A model generated the notes under the pieces. That model saw only the letters and a list, made by a program, of their open reading frames with translations. It had not been told where the DNA came from and made no database searches. This document shows positions 2,935-15,707 of a DNA stretch of 38,533 nt, piece by piece. The stretch lies in the UHGV virus genome UHGV-0139758; one strand, given 5' to 3'. Origin of the DNA: a virus. The translations under genes were made by a program, and so were the position numbers. The first letter of the stretch is position 1; each line of letters starts with the position of its first letter.

Positions 2935-3047
2935 ATTATATATTGCATGTTGCATAATTGCAACAAAAATAATTGCATAAATGCAACTTTTTTGTTGACT
3001 GATAACATTCAAGGTGGTATATTACAAATATCAAGTCGCATAAATGC
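2935..3047. promoter_or_regulatory. Divergent cI/cro promoter region with three palindromic operators
   Basis: Rightward promoter: -35 TTGACT (2995-3000), 17-nt spacer, -10 TATATT (3018-3023). Leftward promoter on the minus strand: -35 TTGCAA (reverse complement of 2958-2963), 17 nt, -10 TATAAT (reverse complement of 2935-2940). Operators: TTGCATgTTGCATAATTGCAA (2943-2963), TTGCATAAATGCAA (2973-2986, a perfect 14-bp palindrome), and GCATAAATGC (3038-3047, downstream of the rightward -10). Confidence 0.7.
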
Positions 3048-3069
3048 GATTTTAGAGAGAGGTGTTATA

Positions 3070-3333
3070 ATGATTAATGTTGCTAAATTAAAAGGCCTAA
3101 TTGTTGAAAGAGGAACGACCCAACAAGCTGTAGCTGATTCTATTGGTATAGACAGAAGTACTTTCTACAGAAAAATGAAAAAAGGTGGAGATTTTTCTAT
3201 AGAAGAGGCAAAAGGCATTAAAGAACAGATTCCGTTATCAGATGCAGAAGCGATAGAAATTTTTTTTGGTAAAGAAGTCGCATTTACGCTACAAAGAAAA
3301 GGTTTAGGGGTGGGAACTGATGACCACGTTTGA
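3070..3333 (+). CDS. cro: Cro-like HTH (XRE family) transcriptional regulator
   Basis: Start at the ATG at 3070 (MINVAKLKGL...), with an AGAGAGAGG RBS upstream. The HTH is QQAVADSIGIDRSTFYRKMK. It is transcribed divergently from cI. Confidence 0.7.
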   Translation: MINVAKLKGLIVERGTTQQAVADSIGIDRSTFYRKMKKGGDFSIEEAKGIKEQIPLSDAEAIEIFFGKEVAFTLQRKGLGVGTDDHV

Positions 3334-3616
3334 AGAAGCGCTAAAACCATTGTTTGATCAGTGGTTAGAGGAAGCATTGCCAGAAATAGGGTGTAGGTTT
3401 AGACAGGAGATTGAATTGGAGCTAGATGCTAAAAACCAACAAACATTATTCAATCAAACGGAAATGGCGAAACGGCAAGGTGTTTCTGTAGAAACATTTA
3501 GAAAATGGCGGAAAGCTGGCTTGCAAGCAGAACCTAATCCTACTGGTAAATTGTTATTTGATTTAAATAAAGTTAATAACTGGCGAAAAGATAATGCTGC
3601 TAAGAAAGAACTTTAA
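3320..3616 (+). CDS. HTH DNA-binding protein; excisionase or regulator candidate
   Basis: 98 aa. The C-terminal half carries a MerR/Xis-like HTH: TEMAKRQGVSVETFRKWRKAGL. Confidence 0.45.
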   Translation: MTTFEEALKPLFDQWLEEALPEIGCRFRQEIELELDAKNQQTLFNQTEMAKRQGVSVETFRKWRKAGLQAEPNPTGKLLFDLNKVNNWRKDNAAKKEL

Positions 3617-3635
3617 CTAGATAAGGAGGCAGAAC

Positions 3636-3806
3636 ATGAATAAAAATAATGTAAAGCAAGACTTAACCACTCAAGAAATTGCAAAATTGATTATGGAAAT
3701 CAAACTTGGAATTTTACAACAATTAGAAAAAGCGCTTGACCAGGCTATAAAAGAGAAAAACTCCACAATGGTTGCAGCCATTGCAGAGATTTTGAAAAGT
3801 TATTGA
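3636..3806 (+). CDS. Small hypothetical protein (56 aa)
   Basis: ATG at 3636 with an AAGGAGG RBS at 3623-3629. Translation: MNKNNVKQDLTTQEIAKLIMEIKLGILQQLEKALDQAIKEKNSTMVAAIAEILKSY. Absent from the ORF track only because it is under 60 aa. Confidence 0.5.
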   Translation: MNKNNVKQDLTTQEIAKLIMEIKLGILQQLEKALDQAIKEKNSTMVAAIAEILKSY

Positions 3807-4024
3807 TTTTCATTTGTTAAATTTTCAGGCAATTCGTTATTTGTAATAGTCTTGAAAAAGTCTAGATAGGCTTGAGCAACTTCTTTAGTTGTAACAGGAT
3901 TACCTTTCACAGAAGTTCGGCCAATTTCATTTGATATTTCAGAATTATGTGCTAACCATGCGACTACAAGGTCAACAGCTAATTCGTTTTTTCTTTTATT
4001 AGTCTGTTCCAATATTTTCACCAC
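3800..4024 (-). CDS. Hypothetical reverse-strand moron (74 aa)
   Basis: ORF on the opposite strand to the early operon. It is followed by copy 1 of the conserved re-start element. Confidence 0.45.
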   Translation of the reverse strand: MVKILEQTNKRKNELAVDLVVAWLAHNSEISNEIGRTSVKGNPVTTKEVAQAYLDFFKTITNNELPENLTNENQ

Positions 4025-4030
4025 CTTATG

Positions 4031-4087
4031 AATTATTTCAGCAGACCATTTGCTGATAAGAAAATTATACCAGAAAGGAAATAAACA
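4031..4087 (+). promoter_or_regulatory. Conserved promoter/RBS-like element, copy 1 (TTATTTCAGCAGACCAyTTGCTGATAA...AATTATACCAGAAAGGAA)
   Basis: Near-identical to 6153-6213 and, over its 3' half, to 4541-4572. In all three cases it follows a minus-strand gene and ends in an AAAGGAA RBS just before an ATG. Confidence 0.5.
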
Positions 4088-4304
4088 AATGAGTGAATTA
4101 AAACCATACTATGCAGAAATGTCTAAAGAAGAGTTAATCAAAATAATTGAGCATCAACATCAGGAACTTCTAATTATTGATGCGATAAAAAATGAATACA
4201 AAAAGCATTTAGAGCAAGTGATTGTTTATCATTCAGTAGAAAATTATCGTGATACAGTCCGAAAAAATAGAGAAGTAGCTGTAACTACTCCTCAAAAAAA
4301 CTAA
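4088..4304 (+). CDS. Small hypothetical protein (72 aa) with a C-terminal REVAxTTPQ motif
   Basis: ATG at 4088 with an AAAGGAA RBS; the track's TTG start at 4050 lies inside the conserved upstream element. The C-terminus RKNREVAVTTPQKN is paralogous to the C-terminus of the 5674..5856 product. Confidence 0.55.
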
Positions 4305-4519
4305 CCGTGATGACAAGGTTTACAACAATAATAACAACCATCGAACTTAAACCCTCTGCCAGCGTTGGCTTCTTCAAGCGACTGAATAGCTGCATGGCAA
4401 GAAGAATATTCGCCCACTACCAATTGTCGTTCTGTAGATGGTAGGTATTTACATGTTGAAACATGCACTTCGTGTAACCCCTTATCGTCTGCTTGTTTGT
4501 TACAAATATAAGTAAACAT
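4301..4519 (-). CDS. Cys/His-rich small protein (72 aa), probable zinc-binding
   Basis: Start at the internal ATG (MFTYICNK...), which has a GAGGTG RBS. The C-terminus is GCYYCCKPCHHG, with further Cys and His at C6, H16/H18, C23 and C41/H42. Confidence 0.5.
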   Translation of the reverse strand: MFTYICNKQADDKGLHEVHVSTCKYLPSTERQLVVGEYSSCHAAIQSLEEANAGRGFKFDGCYYCCKPCHHG

Positions 4520-4540
4520 AATATTTTTCACCTCGCTTTC

Positions 4541-4572
4541 AAAATAATTATACCAGAAAGGAAGTAAACCAA
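4541..4572 (+). promoter_or_regulatory. Conserved element, copy 2 (short form AAAATAATTATACCAGAAAGGAAGTAAAC)
   Basis: Shares the ATTATACCAGAAAGGAA core with copies 1 and 3 and sits directly upstream of the Rha gene ATG at 4573. Confidence 0.45.
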
Positions 4573-5283
4573 ATGACAAATTTAGTAATTATGAAAAACC
4601 AGCAAGCAGTAACAAGTAGTTTACAAGTTGCAGAAACTTTCGGAAAAGAACACAAAGTTGTTCTAAAAGCCATTGATGAATTAAAAGAGGGGGTGGCACA
4701 AAATTATGCCGACCTATTTTACGAAGATACCTACATTCATCCACAAAACAAACAATCTTATCGCCAAGTTATTATGAATCGCGACGGCTTCACTTTGTTA
4801 GCAATGGGGTTCACTGGTCAAAAAGCTTTGCAATTTAAATTGAAATATATTGAAGCTTTTAATCAAATGGAAAAAGAAATTCAACAGCCTAAACTTCCAA
4901 CCTCGCAAAGACAATTGGCGATGCTTGCTTTATCAGCAAATGAAGAAACAAATGAGCGTGTAGATGTAATTGAAAAAGAAGTAGCCGACTTAAAAGACAA
5001 TCAAAAAATCGGTGCAGATGATTATGGCTACTTATCACGTCGAGTTCATCAACGAGTAGCAGAAGTTGCAAGAGGATTTGGAAAAATCACAAAGGAACAG
5101 CGTGGCAAGCTTTACAAAGATATTAATTCAGGTATTAAGCAAATCACAGGTGTGGGTACCCGATCACAATTAAGAGAAAAACATTATCCAATGGTAATTG
5201 AGTATATCAATGACTGGGAGCCGTCTACAGCCACAAAAACAGTTGTAAGACAAATGAGTTTTGACTTAAATGACATAGCGTAG
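4573..5283 (+). CDS. Phage regulatory protein Rha family (antirepressor-like)
   Basis: The N-terminus MTNLVIMKNQQAVTSSLQVAETFGKEHKVVLKAIDEL matches the Rha/ORF6N signature from memory. The C-terminal region is coiled-coil-like. Confidence 0.7.
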   Translation: MTNLVIMKNQQAVTSSLQVAETFGKEHKVVLKAIDELKEGVAQNYADLFYEDTYIHPQNKQSYRQVIMNRDGFTLLAMGFTGQKALQFKLKYIEAFNQMEKEIQQPKLPTSQRQLAMLALSANEETNERVDVIEKEVADLKDNQKIGADDYGYLSRRVHQRVAEVARGFGKITKEQRGKLYKDINSGIKQITGVGTRSQLREKHYPMVIEYINDWEPSTATKTVVRQMSFDLNDIA

Positions 5284-5293
5284 GGAGAATGTT

Positions 5294-5479
5294 ATGGCTT
5301 ATACAACTGAACAAGAAAGCTGGATACTCAACCAAATCAAAAAAGAGCGTAAACAGCTACAAGATGATAGAGCAGCGCTTAGACAATCAGAACAACTGAC
5401 CGAAGGAAAAGCATATCAAATTGAAAAAGAACTCGAATTTTTAAGATATTTAGAAATTCAAAATAGAATCCATGTGTAG
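5294..5479 (+). CDS. Small hypothetical protein (61 aa)
   Basis: ATG with a GGGAGA RBS. Charged, coiled-coil-like sequence. Confidence 0.4.
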   Translation: MAYTTEQESWILNQIKKERKQLQDDRAALRQSEQLTEGKAYQIEKELEFLRYLEIQNRIHV

Positions 5480-5489
5480 GAGGTTAATC

Positions 5490-5696
5490 ATGAAAGCAAT
5501 ACGTGAAGCACGATTGATAGGGATGTTTTTATTGATGATAGCGCTAGGTACATTGTTGAAAAGTCACTTTTCAATGTCAGTGTTAGCAACATTAAGCGTT
5601 CCATTCTTTATCCATTGGTTCTTCAATTGGGATGAAGCGAAGTATCAATATTTTGAAAAAAAGGGGTTAAGAAATGACAAGAAAAGACAAAGATGA
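5490..5696 (+). CDS. Small membrane protein (68 aa)
   Basis: ATG at 5490 with a TAGGAGG RBS. Two hydrophobic segments: IGMFLLMIALGTLL and VLATLSVPFFIHWFF. Confidence 0.45.
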   Translation: MKAIREARLIGMFLLMIALGTLLKSHFSMSVLATLSVPFFIHWFFNWDEAKYQYFEKKGLRNDKKRQR

Positions 5697-5856
5697 ACTA
5701 TTGAGAGAACAGAAAAAAACAAACGAATTGCTCCAAACTATAGTTAGTAATCAAGGGGATTTAGATCAAAAAAGAGAAGTAGCAAGAACTACTCCTCAAG
5801 ATAGCGATGGAAATATTTATAGCGTAGATGAAATTTGTATCCCAAACCTTAATTAA
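5674..5856 (+). CDS. Small hypothetical protein (60 aa) with a REVAxTTPQ motif
   Basis: AAGGGG RBS. DQKREVARTTPQDSD is paralogous to the 4088..4304 product. The DNA at 5768-5805 closely matches 4263-4300. Confidence 0.5.
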   Translation: MTRKDKDELLREQKKTNELLQTIVSNQGDLDQKREVARTTPQDSDGNIYSVDEICIPNLN

Positions 5857-6133
5857 AAATATTGTTATTAATGTATCCCCATTGTTTTTCTGTCAACCAG
5901 CCTTGTTTGTTATTGACTATTTCAACAATAAAAAATTTATCACCTTTGTCAATATAAGGCTTTAATTTGTCAATCATTTGGTTGGGTGTCAAATCAGATT
6001 TAATTAGATACGATGATTTCCAATAACAACACCAAGCACCTGTTGAAAGTTCTTCTTTGATAGTTGTTATAACCTCGTCGTATCTTTGGCCCGGACTATT
6101 CAAATCATAAGTTATCATATAAGGTTTGCGCAT
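5849..6133 (-). CDS. Hypothetical reverse-strand moron (94 aa); function unknown
   Basis: Compact ORF antisense to the early operon, followed by copy 3 of the conserved element. The hydrophobic-residue spacing (ITYDL...Y..V...I...W...SYLIKSD...IDKGDKFFIVEI) loosely resembles small ferredoxin-fold nucleases of the Cas2/VapD type. That resemblance is weak and unverified. Confidence 0.45.
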   Translation of the reverse strand: MRKPYMITYDLNSPGQRYDEVITTIKEELSTGAWCCYWKSSYLIKSDLTPNQMIDKLKPYIDKGDKFFIVEIVNNKQGWLTEKQWGYINNNIFN

Positions 6134-6152
6134 CTGTAGGTACCTCCTTCTT

Positions 6153-6213
6153 AATTATTTCAGCAGACCACTTGCTGATAAATAATATTATACCAGAGAA
6201 AGGAATAAAAAGA
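6153..6213 (+). promoter_or_regulatory. Conserved element, copy 3
   Basis: TTAATTATTTCAGCAGACCACTTGCTGATAAATAATATTATACCAGAGAAAGGAATAAAAAGA, about 85% identical to copy 1, ending in an RBS before the ATG at 6214. Confidence 0.5.
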
Positions 6214-6339
6214 ATGACCAGAATAGAAAAACTAGAGCAAACGAAAAAACTTGCTGATTTATGGTACCAGCAACAAAAAAATCAAATATACATTATTCAA
6301 CAAAAAGAGAGAAGGAAATTTAGATGTTTAAAGCAGTAG
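6214..6339 (+). CDS. Very small ORF (41 aa) downstream of conserved element copy 3
   Basis: The ATG sits at the same position relative to the element as the genes after copies 1 and 2. Translation: MTRIEKLEQTKKLADLWYQQQKNQIYIIQQKERRKFRCLKQ. Confidence 0.3.
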   Translation: MTRIEKLEQTKKLADLWYQQQKNQIYIIQQKERRKFRCLKQ

Positions 6340-6479
6340 GAAAAGATAGTTTGAAAATTTACGTGGTTGAGGATACGAAAGCCCTGGTATTTCAAAAGCT
6401 TAAAGAAAAATATCCAGGCACTGCGATAAATAAGGCAGTATTTCCAGAAGCGTTATTTATCCAAGAAACAAAAAAGTGA
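6324..6479 (+). CDS. Small ORF (51 aa)
   Basis: ATG with a GAAGGAAA RBS. Translation: MFKAVGKDSLKIYVVEDTKALVFQKLKEKYPGTAINKAVFPEALFIQETKK. Confidence 0.35.
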   Translation: MFKAVGKDSLKIYVVEDTKALVFQKLKEKYPGTAINKAVFPEALFIQETKK

Positions 6480-6535
6480 CTTCCGCCGGCAAGCAAAAAG
6501 TCACAAACAAAATTAATTGATAGGAGAATTATAGC

Positions 6536-6772
6536 ATGAGAGTGGAAGTGGATTCAATGCAAAGAATTGTCTTAATTGATAATCATTCACCTTATGGATC
6601 ACTGATTTTTGAAAAGGATGCTATTAATAATCATGTTGCTGTTTACCAAGATAGCGAAGATGAAGAAGTTAGAACAGTATTCGAGAGTTTAGATGAAAGT
6701 GCTTATTTTAATCAACTTGAATTAATCAAAGGACTTCAAAAAGTTATTTCATTACTGAAAGAAGGGGAATAA
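6536..6772 (+). CDS. Hypothetical protein (78 aa)
   Basis: Acidic protein with a TAGGAGAA RBS, immediately upstream of the ERF gene. Confidence 0.5.
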   Translation: MRVEVDSMQRIVLIDNHSPYGSLIFEKDAINNHVAVYQDSEDEEVRTVFESLDESAYFNQLELIKGLQKVISLLKEGE

Positions 6773-7450
6773 ATGAACGAGAACAGTGAAAATTTAAAAG
6801 AATTGTTTGATGGGATGTATAAGCTAAAAAGCAAATTAATTCAACCAAGATTTGACGCAGAAGTGGCCTACTCAACGAAAAAAGGTCCAATGAATTTCCA
6901 ATATGCAACTCTAAAAGTGATTGAAGAAGCAATTAGAAAAGCTGCACAAGAATCCGAAAGCGGAATTGATTTTCAACAAAATGTCGTCAATGAGAATAAT
7001 GCGTTAAAAGTCACAACAATTATTACTCATGTTAGCGGTCAATATATAGTTCATGGACCTTTTGAATTTCCAAACAGCGGGACAAATCCTCAAGGATTAG
7101 GAAGTTTAACGACATATGCAAGACGTTACTCGCTTTCGGCAGCGTTTGGAATTGCAGCAGATAAAGACGACGATGGCCAAACGGCAGCTGAAAAGAACAA
7201 TGATACATCGAAAGTTAATTTGATTAGCGGTAAACAGTTAGCCACGTTAAACGATCATATCAGACAACTTTCTGAGTTATCGAATTCTGAACTTGACTAT
7301 GTGCGGAATGAACTAAGTAAAGAATTGAATGTTGATGTCAATGAAAACATGCCGTCTAGTATGTTCAATAAAGCTGTTGAAGTTCTGAAACAATGGATAC
7401 AACAATTCCAGCCACAACCAGAAGAAAACATTACATGGGGGCAAAGCTAA
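6773..7450 (+). CDS. erf: ERF-family single-strand annealing (recombination) protein
   Basis: 225 aa. Conserved ERF-like core: FQYATLKVIEEAIRKA ... ITHVSGQYI ... TYARRYSLSAAFGIA. It is followed by a DUF1351 gene, as is usual in Firmicute siphophages. Confidence 0.7.
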   Translation: MNENSENLKELFDGMYKLKSKLIQPRFDAEVAYSTKKGPMNFQYATLKVIEEAIRKAAQESESGIDFQQNVVNENNALKVTTIITHVSGQYIVHGPFEFPNSGTNPQGLGSLTTYARRYSLSAAFGIAADKDDDGQTAAEKNNDTSKVNLISGKQLATLNDHIRQLSELSNSELDYVRNELSKELNVDVNENMPSSMFNKAVEVLKQWIQQFQPQPEENITWGQS

Positions 7451-15318: not shown

Positions 15319-15707
15319 CTTATTGCAACTTTTTTACAATAACTAGCCGATTTTTTGCAAACAAAAAGCCAGCCGACCAATGGCTGACTAATGTGGTAGT
15401 TAGCACTTTTCCCAAGTAAAGTGCTAATAGTGCCAACAAATAAGGTTGACATTGTGTCTCTGGTGGAGACAGGAACTATCGATAACTGTTTTCCGCCAGT
15501 TATCATAGAAAAGGAGAAATTTATTTCAGAAATAAAATCCCCAAGAAAGTTAATATGATTATATCATGAGTAAATGTATTTGAAAATACTATCTCATAGT
15601 ACGTATTGTAAAAAGTTTATTTAGTAGAAAATAAAAAAAGCCAGATTGCTCCGGCTGTGAGAAATATTTTCGACATAGTTATTATACCACAAAAGGAGCG
15701 ATTCCAC

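Follow-up and report, generated by a model that had tools for sequence, protein, structure and literature searches.

Which of its neighbours does a short repeated element in the early region of a temperate phage serve: the operon in which it lies, or the small genes that interrupt this operon on the opposite strand? The question is raised by the virus genome UHGV-0139758, a stretch of 38,533 nucleotides (nt) that is referred to here as the window and that belongs to a temperate Enterococcus faecalis siphovirus, kin of phiFL1-3 and phiEf11. Three copies of an element of ~60 bp are situated within the rightward early operon of this phage. A previous, sequence-only reading had interpreted the element as a module that restarts the plus-strand operon after each reverse-strand insert. 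The analysis presented here leads to a different assignment: the element is the 5′ control region of the reverse-strand genes, which are morons, and not a restart signal for the plus-strand operon. The complete picture, a minus-strand cassette of promoter, leader and Shine–Dalgarno (SD) sequence, in which a leader hairpin would stabilize the messenger and the shared sequence would act as a patch for recombination, is considered highly probable.

Three copies and their minus-strand signals

The repetition is far beyond what chance would produce. The 27-nt core TTATTTCAGCAGACCAyTTGCTGATAA is present at 4033-4059 and 6155-6181, against 0.00 matches expected from shuffled sequences, and no further site was found in the whole window with up to three mismatches allowed. 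A second segment, ATTATACCAGAAAGGAA, occurs exactly at 4064-4080 and 4547-4563 and in a version with a 2-nt insertion at 6187-6205; at up to three mismatches it gives four matches versus 0.45 expected, a number reached in no shuffle. A repeat search returned a three-copy family (4058-4074, 4541-4557 and 6181-6197), a 40-nt pair that is 90% identical (4020-4059 and 6142-6181) and a 32-nt pair that is 88% identical (4058-4089 and 4541-4572). The existence of three copies at the positions first proposed is therefore confirmed, the range ends given for them (6087/6213) being only approximate. Copy 2 is indeed partial and lacks the hairpin half, and the copies adjoin the three reverse-strand open reading frames (ORFs) named at the outset, 3800-4024, 4301-4519 and 5849-6133.

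The signals within the copies are oriented towards these ORFs. Reverse complementation of the plus-strand string ATTATACCA yields TGGTATAAT, an extended -10 box that fits TGnTATAAT perfectly and stands at a fixed distance upstream of all three reverse-strand genes; the window contains 12 TGnTATAAT sites versus 2.9 expected. A promoter scan returned only minus-strand hits inside the copies, and neither a consensus scan nor inspection by eye disclosed a convincing plus-strand -35/-10 pair within them. Read along the minus strand, copies 1 and 3 consist of TGGTATAAT, 4-5 nt, TTATCAGCAA(A/G)TGGTCTGCTGAAATAA, AAGG(T/A)GGT and a start codon, the spacer to TTATCAG being 5 nt in copy 3, and copy 2 consists of TGGTATAAT, TATTTTG, AAAGCGAGGTG, AAAAATATT and ATG. 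A second minus-strand promoter inside the hairpin (TTATCA-16-AATAAT) was considered and rejected, because the corresponding -10 reads AATAAC in the family consensus. The hairpin of copy 1 is the minimum-free-energy structure of the 48-nt leader and is also supported by covariation; counted to the TTG start at 4012, the predicted 5′ untranslated region (5′UTR) of this copy is 45 nt long.

At the other end of each gene, a stem-loop followed by a U-run is found at the minus-strand 3′ end (Table 1), so that each unit is closed by its own intrinsic terminator and is autonomous. For moron 3, an 83-nt stretch that includes the terminator folds at -17.7 kcal/mol (z -2.4). With a minus-strand promoter, leader, ribosome-binding site (RBS) and terminator for each gene, the three inserts are therefore autonomous transcription units, that is, morons.

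Mapped transcript starts in V583 prophage 6

Experimental support comes from prophage 6 of E. faecalis V583. Three genes of this prophage, ef2833 (abi-alpha), ef2847 and ef2850, are constitutively expressed in the lysogen, each from a promoter with a mapped transcription start site (TSS), and Lossouarn 2019 cloned the genes along with their own constitutive promoters (PMC6356687). Michaux 2020 lists the TSSs as primary and antisense, with 5′UTRs of 45 nt for EF2850 and 19 nt for EF2847, whose start codons are 699 nt apart (PMC7724050). The primers JL8/JL9 (ef2850) and JL10/JL11 (ef2847) of PMC6356687 match exactly one of the loci recovered in the present survey, L003, in which the start codons show the same 699-nt spacing. 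A different locus, L100, resembled V583 prophage 6 in its spacing (670/697) but was rejected as a candidate, its origin being phages of the E. casseliflavus/E. faecium type.

Counting 45 nt upstream of the second ATG of L003 leads to the A of TTATCAG, the seventh nucleotide after TATAAT, with the hairpin starting at +2; the published primary TSS of ef2850 thus falls exactly on the predicted +1. The spacing and the predicted +1 of copy 1 agree with this mapped start, and its 5′UTR has the length reported for EF2850. Counting 19 nt upstream of the first ATG leads to the G of TGGTAAAAT-GAATTT-G, and the ef2847 leader (GAAAGCGAGGTGAAATATT) is the homologue of the hairpin-less leader of copy 2, a type that precedes at least five unrelated proteins. 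The two V583 promoters are direct homologues of the two forms of the element, the hairpin cassette (ef2850) and the hairpin-less leader (ef2847), and their mapped primary TSSs are antisense to early genes. The differences are that the V583 cargo genes are unlike those of the window and that the V583 papers deal with individual gene promoters and do not describe the shared cassette, its hairpin or its distribution.

Promoter function, leftward direction and a transcript start one nucleotide before the hairpin are predicted for the window because they have been shown for the V583 homologues; a strong SD and a terminator complete each unit. An extended -10 promoter for sigma-A (TGGTATAAT), in which no usable -35 is present, would fire leftward and start transcription ~7 nt downstream. 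The messengers of copies 1 and 3 would then carry a hairpin of 6 bp with a 7-nt loop at +2, AAAUAA, a long SD (AAGGUGGUGA and AAGGAGGU, respectively) and the start codon, in a leader of 45-46 nt; copy 2 would represent a variant with a hairpin-less leader of 21 nt. By homology with V583 prophage 6, the lysogen would express the units constitutively and in antisense to an early lytic operon that is repressed, and convergent transcription with this operon may cause mutual interference.

Ownership of the element

The alternative that the copies serve the plus strand, by restarting the early operon after each insert as a promoter, RNA-processing or translation-initiation site, draws on their location 10-40 nt ahead of an RBS and ATG of the plus strand, with little variation in spacing, on the similarity between copies 1 and 2 that extends to the plus-strand ATG, and on a plus-strand fold of the hairpin that is at least as good (7-8 bp including G-U pairs). 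The AAAGGAA and ATG that had been noticed after each copy are present, with a gap of 8-9 nt, except that the third ATG lies at 6214. These AAAGGAA sequences are the ordinary RBSs of the plus-strand genes and are located in the upstream region (20-30 nt) of the divergent promoter. The -10, SD and start codon that are conserved at fixed distances all belong to the minus strand, a convincing plus-strand -35/-10 was not found, the mapped TSS of the V583 homologue is on the cargo strand, and the 6-7-bp stem is too short for RNase III.

The comparison with phiEf11 bears directly on ownership. This phage encodes a homologue of ORF 6214-6339 with 97.5% identity, overlapped by a different upstream plus-strand gene; neither a reverse-strand gene nor the cassette is found there, and the homology between window and phiEf11 begins at the ATG of this gene. 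The plus-strand gene is therefore independent of the element, which belongs to the inserted unit. Presence in one phage and absence in the other are seen next to the same neighbour at the right-hand boundary; the left boundary of moron 3 is not mappable against phiEf11, the upstream genes being unrelated. Taken together, a restart function is very unlikely. The earlier suggestions of a portable module linked to reverse-strand morons, and of an element that marks moron boundaries, are upheld; the idea of a plus-strand restart erred in polarity and ownership, and the proposed promoter exists but reads the minus strand into the moron.

Covariation of the leader hairpin

The stem of the hairpin is kept by compensatory changes, appearing as CAGCA/TGCTG, CAGTA/TACTG, CAGTG/CACTG, CAGTC/GGCTG or TAGCA/TGCTA. 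Among 45 distinct Enterococcus sequences, 96.6% of cells are paired and 17 cells show double changes versus 4.0 in shuffled alignments, with none of 500 shuffles reaching this value. A covariance model of 53 positions recovers both hairpin copies of the window (78.0 bits and, for copy 3 at 6142-6195, 72.5 bits) and 57 others; when 56 distinct Enterococcus and Clostridia sequences are aligned to it, 99.4% of cells are paired, with 30 double changes versus 9.6 shuffled. A congruent result came from scanning whole genomes with nothing but TATAAT, TTATCAG and CTGAAATAA held fixed, as the free centre adds 1.68 pairs versus 0.66 +/- 0.15 in shuffles. Different stems coexist within one genome (loci L002, L019 and L176), an observation in favour of shape over sequence at the top of the stem.

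A long-range pairing of CCUUAUCAG with CUGAUAAGG that would mask the SD was rejected: 85% of cells pair, which is no better than in shuffles, and its first bases are excluded by the mapped 5′ end.

Distribution and mosaicism

The cassette is widespread. Its 24-nt core was found in 74 IMG/VR contigs, and a profile search over 139 IMG/VR loci gave 165 instances, 151 of which have a downstream ORF; 89 distinct proteins, belonging to at least 36 unrelated small-protein families, are encoded downstream. As an unbiased test, 48 distinct contexts were retrieved by the hairpin core alone. A -10 is present in 47 of these (TATAAT in 44) and lies exactly 4 nt from TTATCAG in 41; TG at -15/-14 accompanies it in 40, and an SD follows 8-13 nt past the hairpin in 47. 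When a pattern was used that forces neither the -10 nor the centre of the hairpin, a -10 was seen in 135 of 151 contexts, and the other 16 look like chance matches because in most of them the centre forms hardly any additional pairs, if any.

The arrangement TATAAT-N4-TTATCAG-hairpin-CTGAAATAA-SD-ATG recurs in many Enterococcus species, Vagococcus and Tetragenococcus, and BLAST searches located the cassette in Listeria phages and in three Enterococcus 'plasmids' of 36-59 kb. It is also found in Acetobacterium, Clostridium, Lachnospiraceae, Roseburia and Oscillospiraceae, where the copies have wholly different stems and loops and canonical -35 boxes (sigma-A promoters). Heteroimmune phages share it: the window encodes an S24-type CI and a tyrosine integrase, phiFL1A ImmA/XRE and a serine integrase. 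The expectation that the element flanks reverse-strand cargo in relatives is borne out as the typical setting, a single reverse-strand gene enclosed by an operon that runs the other way: of 105 instances, 75 have the start of a divergent ORF no more than 90 nt from the -10, and in 73 the DNA past the cargo is coded on the opposite strand. Of 100 regions behind the cargo, 30 contain a terminator-like site on the cargo strand and two on the other strand.

The cargo of enterococcal copies is mostly without known function and includes DUF2513, DUF1883, DUF1508/YegP and KTSC proteins and a Cas2-like family. Among the proteins encoded behind clostridial copies are small zinc-ribbon proteins, one with an NYN domain and an Abi_alpha protein (PF14337, E 5e-49). 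The Abi_alpha gene of Clostridium ihumii (L186, ~1295-2200) is preceded by the cassette and belongs to the family of abi-alpha (ef2833), a defence gene of V583 prophage 6 that has been characterized by experiment. In phiFL1A (L197), where gp05 is the annotated cargo of a first cassette, a second cassette (TGCTAAAAT ... with a CAGTG/CACTG stem) occupies the gap between gp10 and gp11 (4391-4699) together with an unannotated small reverse-strand ORF that starts MSGNDS. Tandem pairs of cassettes in the same orientation, ~504 nt apart, form mini-arrays in L176 (2284-2824), L089 (5261-5813), L082 (3903-4520) and L002 (1780-2358); the two stems differ (GUGACAG type, then UCAGUGGUCGG type), and each precedes a different small gene. 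Enterococcus-type cassettes with cargo of Enterococcus-like character also appear on contigs that are short or of low coverage and bear the labels Stenotrophomonas, Streptomyces and Flavobacterium (L154, L156 and L193), and such a cassette is present in a record named Acinetobacter phage D2SVT (hit H30); these copies probably reflect contamination or mislabelling in public records.

Flanks and cargo are combined in a mosaic fashion. Forty-two clusters of upstream flanks and 55 clusters of cargo form 78 combinations, one flank joining 11 cargos and one cargo five flanks. In a rough association analysis the -10 and hairpin columns are mainly tied to the upstream flank and the columns from SD to start codon to the cargo, with the switch just after CTGAAATAA; the result is suggestive only, as it is confounded by relatedness. 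Phages with the cassette encode Erf or RecT annealing proteins, the window an ERF-family one. Since flanks of many kinds surround this one ~55-nt cassette, it may act as a patch of homology at which phage annealing proteins, here Erf, swap cargo; such swapping would explain the threefold reuse within one genome.

A site-specific version of this exchange, with the hairpin as a recombination site similar to the attC of integrons, would account for a palindrome that is imperfect, with a 2-nt asymmetry and a centre that varies between conserved outer boxes, for the diverse small ORFs that adjoin it, sometimes as tandem units (L176 and L089), and for the transition from flank-linked to cargo-linked columns immediately 3′ of the hairpin, a transition seen in the rough and confounded analysis just described. 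The units differ from integron cassettes, as each is equipped with a promoter and, as a rule, a terminator of its own. No dedicated recombinase co-occurs with them, and the integrases differ from phage to phage (tyrosine here, serine in phiFL1A). Moreover, -10 variants, stems and 3′ parts reassort mutually, which suggests crossovers spread along the cassette. Of all the explanations considered, an attC-like site is the least credible and appears extremely unlikely.

The role of the hairpin

In Firmicutes, a 5′-terminal stem-loop combined with a strong SD is an established block to 5′-end-dependent decay. The cassette has this architecture: in the ef2850 homologue +1 is the A of TTATCAG and the stem begins at +2. 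The hairpin and the strong SD would therefore most likely shield a short mRNA from 5′-end-dependent decay by RNase J1/Y, and the invariant base and flanks of the hairpin may in addition be recognized sequence-specifically by some factor.

Several observations weigh against the overall interpretation or limit it. Folding support is modest, with z values of -1.9 and +0.1 for the leaders of the window, and the counts of G-U versus A-C wobbles do not decide which strand folds; the hairpin may have a role at the DNA level or in plus-strand RNA. A pure stabilizer fails to explain why the four basal pairs UCAG/CUGA and the flanks TTA.../...AAATAA are near-invariant from Enterococcus to Clostridia, and why the Enterococcus loop AGUGGUC is constant as its closing pairs covary (CA/UG, CG/CG, UC/GG), a behaviour more typical of a recognized loop than of a purely structural hairpin. 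These constant parts hint at sequence-specific recognition by a factor. The DNA palindrome TTAT...ATAA reaches 2 nt past the mapped 5′ end. For the window, support for the TSS comes by homology with V583 prophage 6, and the identification of L003 with the V583 sequence is based on matches to four primers and agreement in three distances. A terminator, under a strict rule, stands behind just 30% of cargo genes, and the recombination role is deduced from an assortment of flanks that shared ancestry may inflate.

Some of these features would suit a DNA operator, the palindrome TTATCAG-N-CTGA(AA)TAA being bound at +1 to +25 by a conserved phage or host repressor that shuts the moron promoters under some condition, such as lytic growth. 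The site would lie directly over the TSS, a classic repressor position; its outer half-sites and flanks are almost invariant around a variable centre, the palindrome extends upstream of the mapped 5′ end, and most Enterococcus copies contain a third TTATCAG-like half-site (CTGATAAGG). An operator spacer has no need for the compensatory changes that keep the centre self-complementary. The third half-site is absent in Clostridia, and its long-range pairing is without covariation. The V583 homologue is constitutive in the lysogen, and the cassette spans heteroimmune phages and two bacterial classes with no co-occurring regulator identified. A general operator is for these reasons decidedly unlikely. 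The specific proposal of an operator for Rha, CI or Cro is without support: the palindromes of the switch region are different, and the cassette is common to phages with different repressors and to Clostridia.

Recognition could instead take place on the RNA, with an RNA-binding protein or RNase controlling all cassette messengers as one regulon. The conserved basal stem, the 3′ AAAUAA and the constant Enterococcus loop amid covarying closing pairs are typical of protein-bound hairpins, and the position of the hairpin is fixed relative to the 5′ end and the SD. Against this stand loops that are wholly different in clostridial and some enterococcal copies (GUGACAG, CUAGCA, UGUUUG), the lack of an Rfam family match or a candidate binding protein, and the hairpin-less variant, which serves the same kind of genes. 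Such a regulon is quite improbable, to much the same degree as the operator. A broader formulation takes TTATCAG-hairpin-CTGAAATAA at +1 as an undescribed Firmicutes-wide leader motif, whose base and flanks are recognized by a conserved factor that co-regulates dozens of unrelated cargo genes; the factor may be an RNA-binding protein, an RNase, RNA polymerase itself or a DNA-binding protein, and the cargo would be accessory genes expressed in lysogeny, including defence genes of the Abi-alpha type, with an attC-like exchange site as a bolder version. This formulation is tentative and seems unlikely, less so than the two narrower ones.

Relation to known systems and significance

The closest known counterparts of the moron cassette are classical morons, the individual ef2847 and ef2850 promoters and the PeSLs of T4-type phages. 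Morons of lambdoid phages were reportedly defined for HK97 and HK022 by Hendrix and colleagues. The units of the window resemble them in being single extra genes within a phage operon, with their own promoter and terminator, expressed from the prophage (here as predicted by homology with V583) and missing at the same site in a close relative (here phiEf11). They differ in being inverted relative to the operon and located in the early region, and in that many unrelated morons share one cassette of promoter, leader and RBS. The GC contents of moron genes 1, 2 and 3 are 0.32, 0.40 and 0.31 and that of the early region is 0.34, values that do not clearly set the genes apart.

PeSLs (promoter-early stem-loops) are short conserved cassettes of promoter and stem-loop, repeated in variable regions where they flank small ORFans, and have been proposed to mediate modular shuffling by homologous recombination (Arbiol 2010, PMC2839356; Comeau 2014, PMC4122927). 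The likeness lies in a repeated cassette at the junctions of shuffled modules, here with 78 combinations of flank and cargo and three copies in the window. In PeSLs the stem-loop is a terminator, whereas here it is a transcribed leader at +2, followed by AAAUAA and with no U-tract on either strand; the hosts are temperate siphoviruses of Firmicutes, the units are antisense to the operon and the SD is part of the cassette.

Known 5′ stabilizers of Firmicutes include those of ermC, the aprE leader and phage SP82, and the STAB-SD of cryIIIA. They share with the cassette a hairpin 1-2 nt from the 5′ end followed by a strong SD; they are gene-specific, whereas the present hairpin, a putative stabilizer, has an invariant stem base and belongs to a module that is both conserved and portable. 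To integron attC sites the cassette is similar as an imperfect palindrome with conserved ends, a variable centre and diverse small cassettes adjoining; it differs in having no IntI, a promoter in every unit and no evidence of site-specific crossover, and its phages encode ordinary integrases of the tyrosine or serine type at the attachment end. A literature search found no paper that contains the cassette sequence or describes the cassette.

The cassette has practical implications. The phage records inspected do not annotate these promoters, and some small reverse-strand genes are uncalled, such as that of phiFL1A at 4391-4699. With a covariance model that spans Enterococcus, Vagococcus, Tetragenococcus, Listeria phages and Clostridia, the cassette can serve as a sequence beacon, and the gene that follows it is a candidate accessory gene expressed in lysogeny. 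Examples located behind the cassette or of the same class are an Abi-alpha homologue and DUF2513, YegP, KTSC, DUF1883 and Cas2-like proteins, most of them without an assigned function. The beacon gives direct access to new genes for defence, exclusion or conversion in Gram-positive pathogens and provides a testable substrate for annealing-protein-driven mosaicism in temperate phages. For synthetic biology it offers a compact natural expression cassette that unites a -35-less promoter, a 5′ hairpin and a strong SD.

Other features of the window

The coordinates of the cassettes, morons and neighbouring genes are collected in Table 1.

Table 1. Features in and around the early region of the window (CDS, coding sequence; HTH, helix-turn-helix)
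Feature	Position	Strand	Remarks
Tyrosine integrase	88-1230	minus	
CI-type repressor	about 2187-2915	minus	HTH and S24 peptidase domains
Switch-region palindromes	3036-3049, 3163-3204, 3275-3292		repeat search; unrelated to the three-copy element
Cro-like HTH	3071-3333	plus	
Moron 1 intrinsic terminator	3761-3788	minus	11-bp stem and U-run; -16.0 kcal/mol, z -4.5
Moron 1 CDS	3800-4012	minus	70 aa with the likelier TTG start; alternative GTG 4024 gives 74 aa; PHROG 14546, function unassigned in PHROG
Copy 1 SD AAGGTGGTGA	4018-4027	minus	5 nt ahead of TTG start 4012-4010
Copy 1 leader hairpin UCAGCA-AAUGGUC-UGCUGA	4038-4056	minus	+2 to +20 of predicted mRNA
Copy 1 extended -10 TGGTATAAT	4064-4072	minus	predicted TSS A4057, 7th nt past -10
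RBS and ATG of ORF 4089-4304	4074-4091	plus	AAAGGAA 4074-4080, ATG 4089
Moron 2 intrinsic terminator	4270-4293	minus	-13.3 kcal/mol, z -4.85; within 3′ end of plus-strand ORF 4089-4304
Moron 2 CDS	4301-4519	minus	72 aa, Cys-rich; PHROG 4298, function unassigned
Copy 2 leader GAAAGCGAGGTGAAAAATATT		minus	21 nt, hairpin-less; SD GAGGTG at 4529-4534
Copy 2 extended -10 TGGTATAAT	4547-4555	minus	predicted TSS G4540
RBS and ATG of Rha gene	4557-4575	plus	AAAGGAA 4557-4563, ATG 4573
Rha/ORF6C protein gene	4573-5283	plus	in plus-strand early region
Moron 3 intrinsic terminator	5774-5797	minus	repeat of moron 2 terminator; inside plus-strand ORF 5674-5856
Moron 3 CDS	5849-6133	minus	94 aa; PHROG 1090, function unassigned
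Copy 3 SD AAGGAGGT	6142-6149	minus	8 nt ahead of ATG at 6133
Copy 3 leader hairpin UCAGCA-AGUGGUC-UGCUGA	6160-6178	minus	fold and covariation
Copy 3 extended -10 TGGTATAAT	6187-6195	minus	predicted TSS about A6179
RBS and ATG of ORF 6214-6339	6199-6216	plus	AAAGGAA 6199-6205, ATG 6214
ERF-family annealing protein gene	6773-7450		

The three moron proteins have no match in Pfam or PADLOC, and a PDB search, made with the 94-aa product of moron 3, returned no sequence match. This protein shares 48% identity with the most frequent cargo family, a representative of which shows weak matches to several PADLOC Cas2 models (best E 2.5e-7); no such model matches the 94-aa protein itself. By this kinship the product of moron 3 may be a solitary phage-borne protein of the Cas2 fold.

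The terminators of morons 2 and 3 are contained in repeats (4264-4295 and 5768-5799) that are 88% identical and lie inside the 3′ ends of ORFs 4089-4304 and 5674-5856, so that these ORFs share only the peptide REVA(V/R)TTPQ. The repeat was rejected as a general 3′ cassette since it occurs only in the window and three other loci. A scan of positions 3000-7000 with Rfam 15 (cmscan, E<=1) had no hit at any of the three copies. Only the terminators of morons 2 and 3 scored, as weak matches to Listeria sbrA (RF01489) that do not reach the gathering score.

A perfect 13-nt match to the 5′ half of the hairpin, in the sense of the cargo strand (TTATCAGCAAATG), lies within the coding sequence of Rha (4930-4942, plus strand); about one such match is expected by chance among the inverted repeats of the region, and it is probably coincidental. 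Further downstream, at 15628-15689 on the minus strand, a fourth TGGTATAAT (15689->15681) is followed after ~25 nt by a terminator hairpin, AGCCGGA...UCUGGCU with a U-run, of -10.4 kcal/mol. A TGATATAAT is found 120 nt further along, at 15558-15566, ahead of a minus-strand ORF of 63 aa that lacks an SD. The unit at 15628-15689 is the second in the window that resembles a small RNA gene. The first is on the minus strand at 6466-6557, between ORF 6324-6479 and ORF 6536-6772. Its promoter, TTGAAT-18-TGCTATAAT (6557->6528), is a good one and is followed ~17 nt on by a stem-loop and U-run (~6504->6470, -12.5 kcal/mol, z -2.5), and the whole looks like an ORF-less gene for an antisense or small RNA of ~50 nt.

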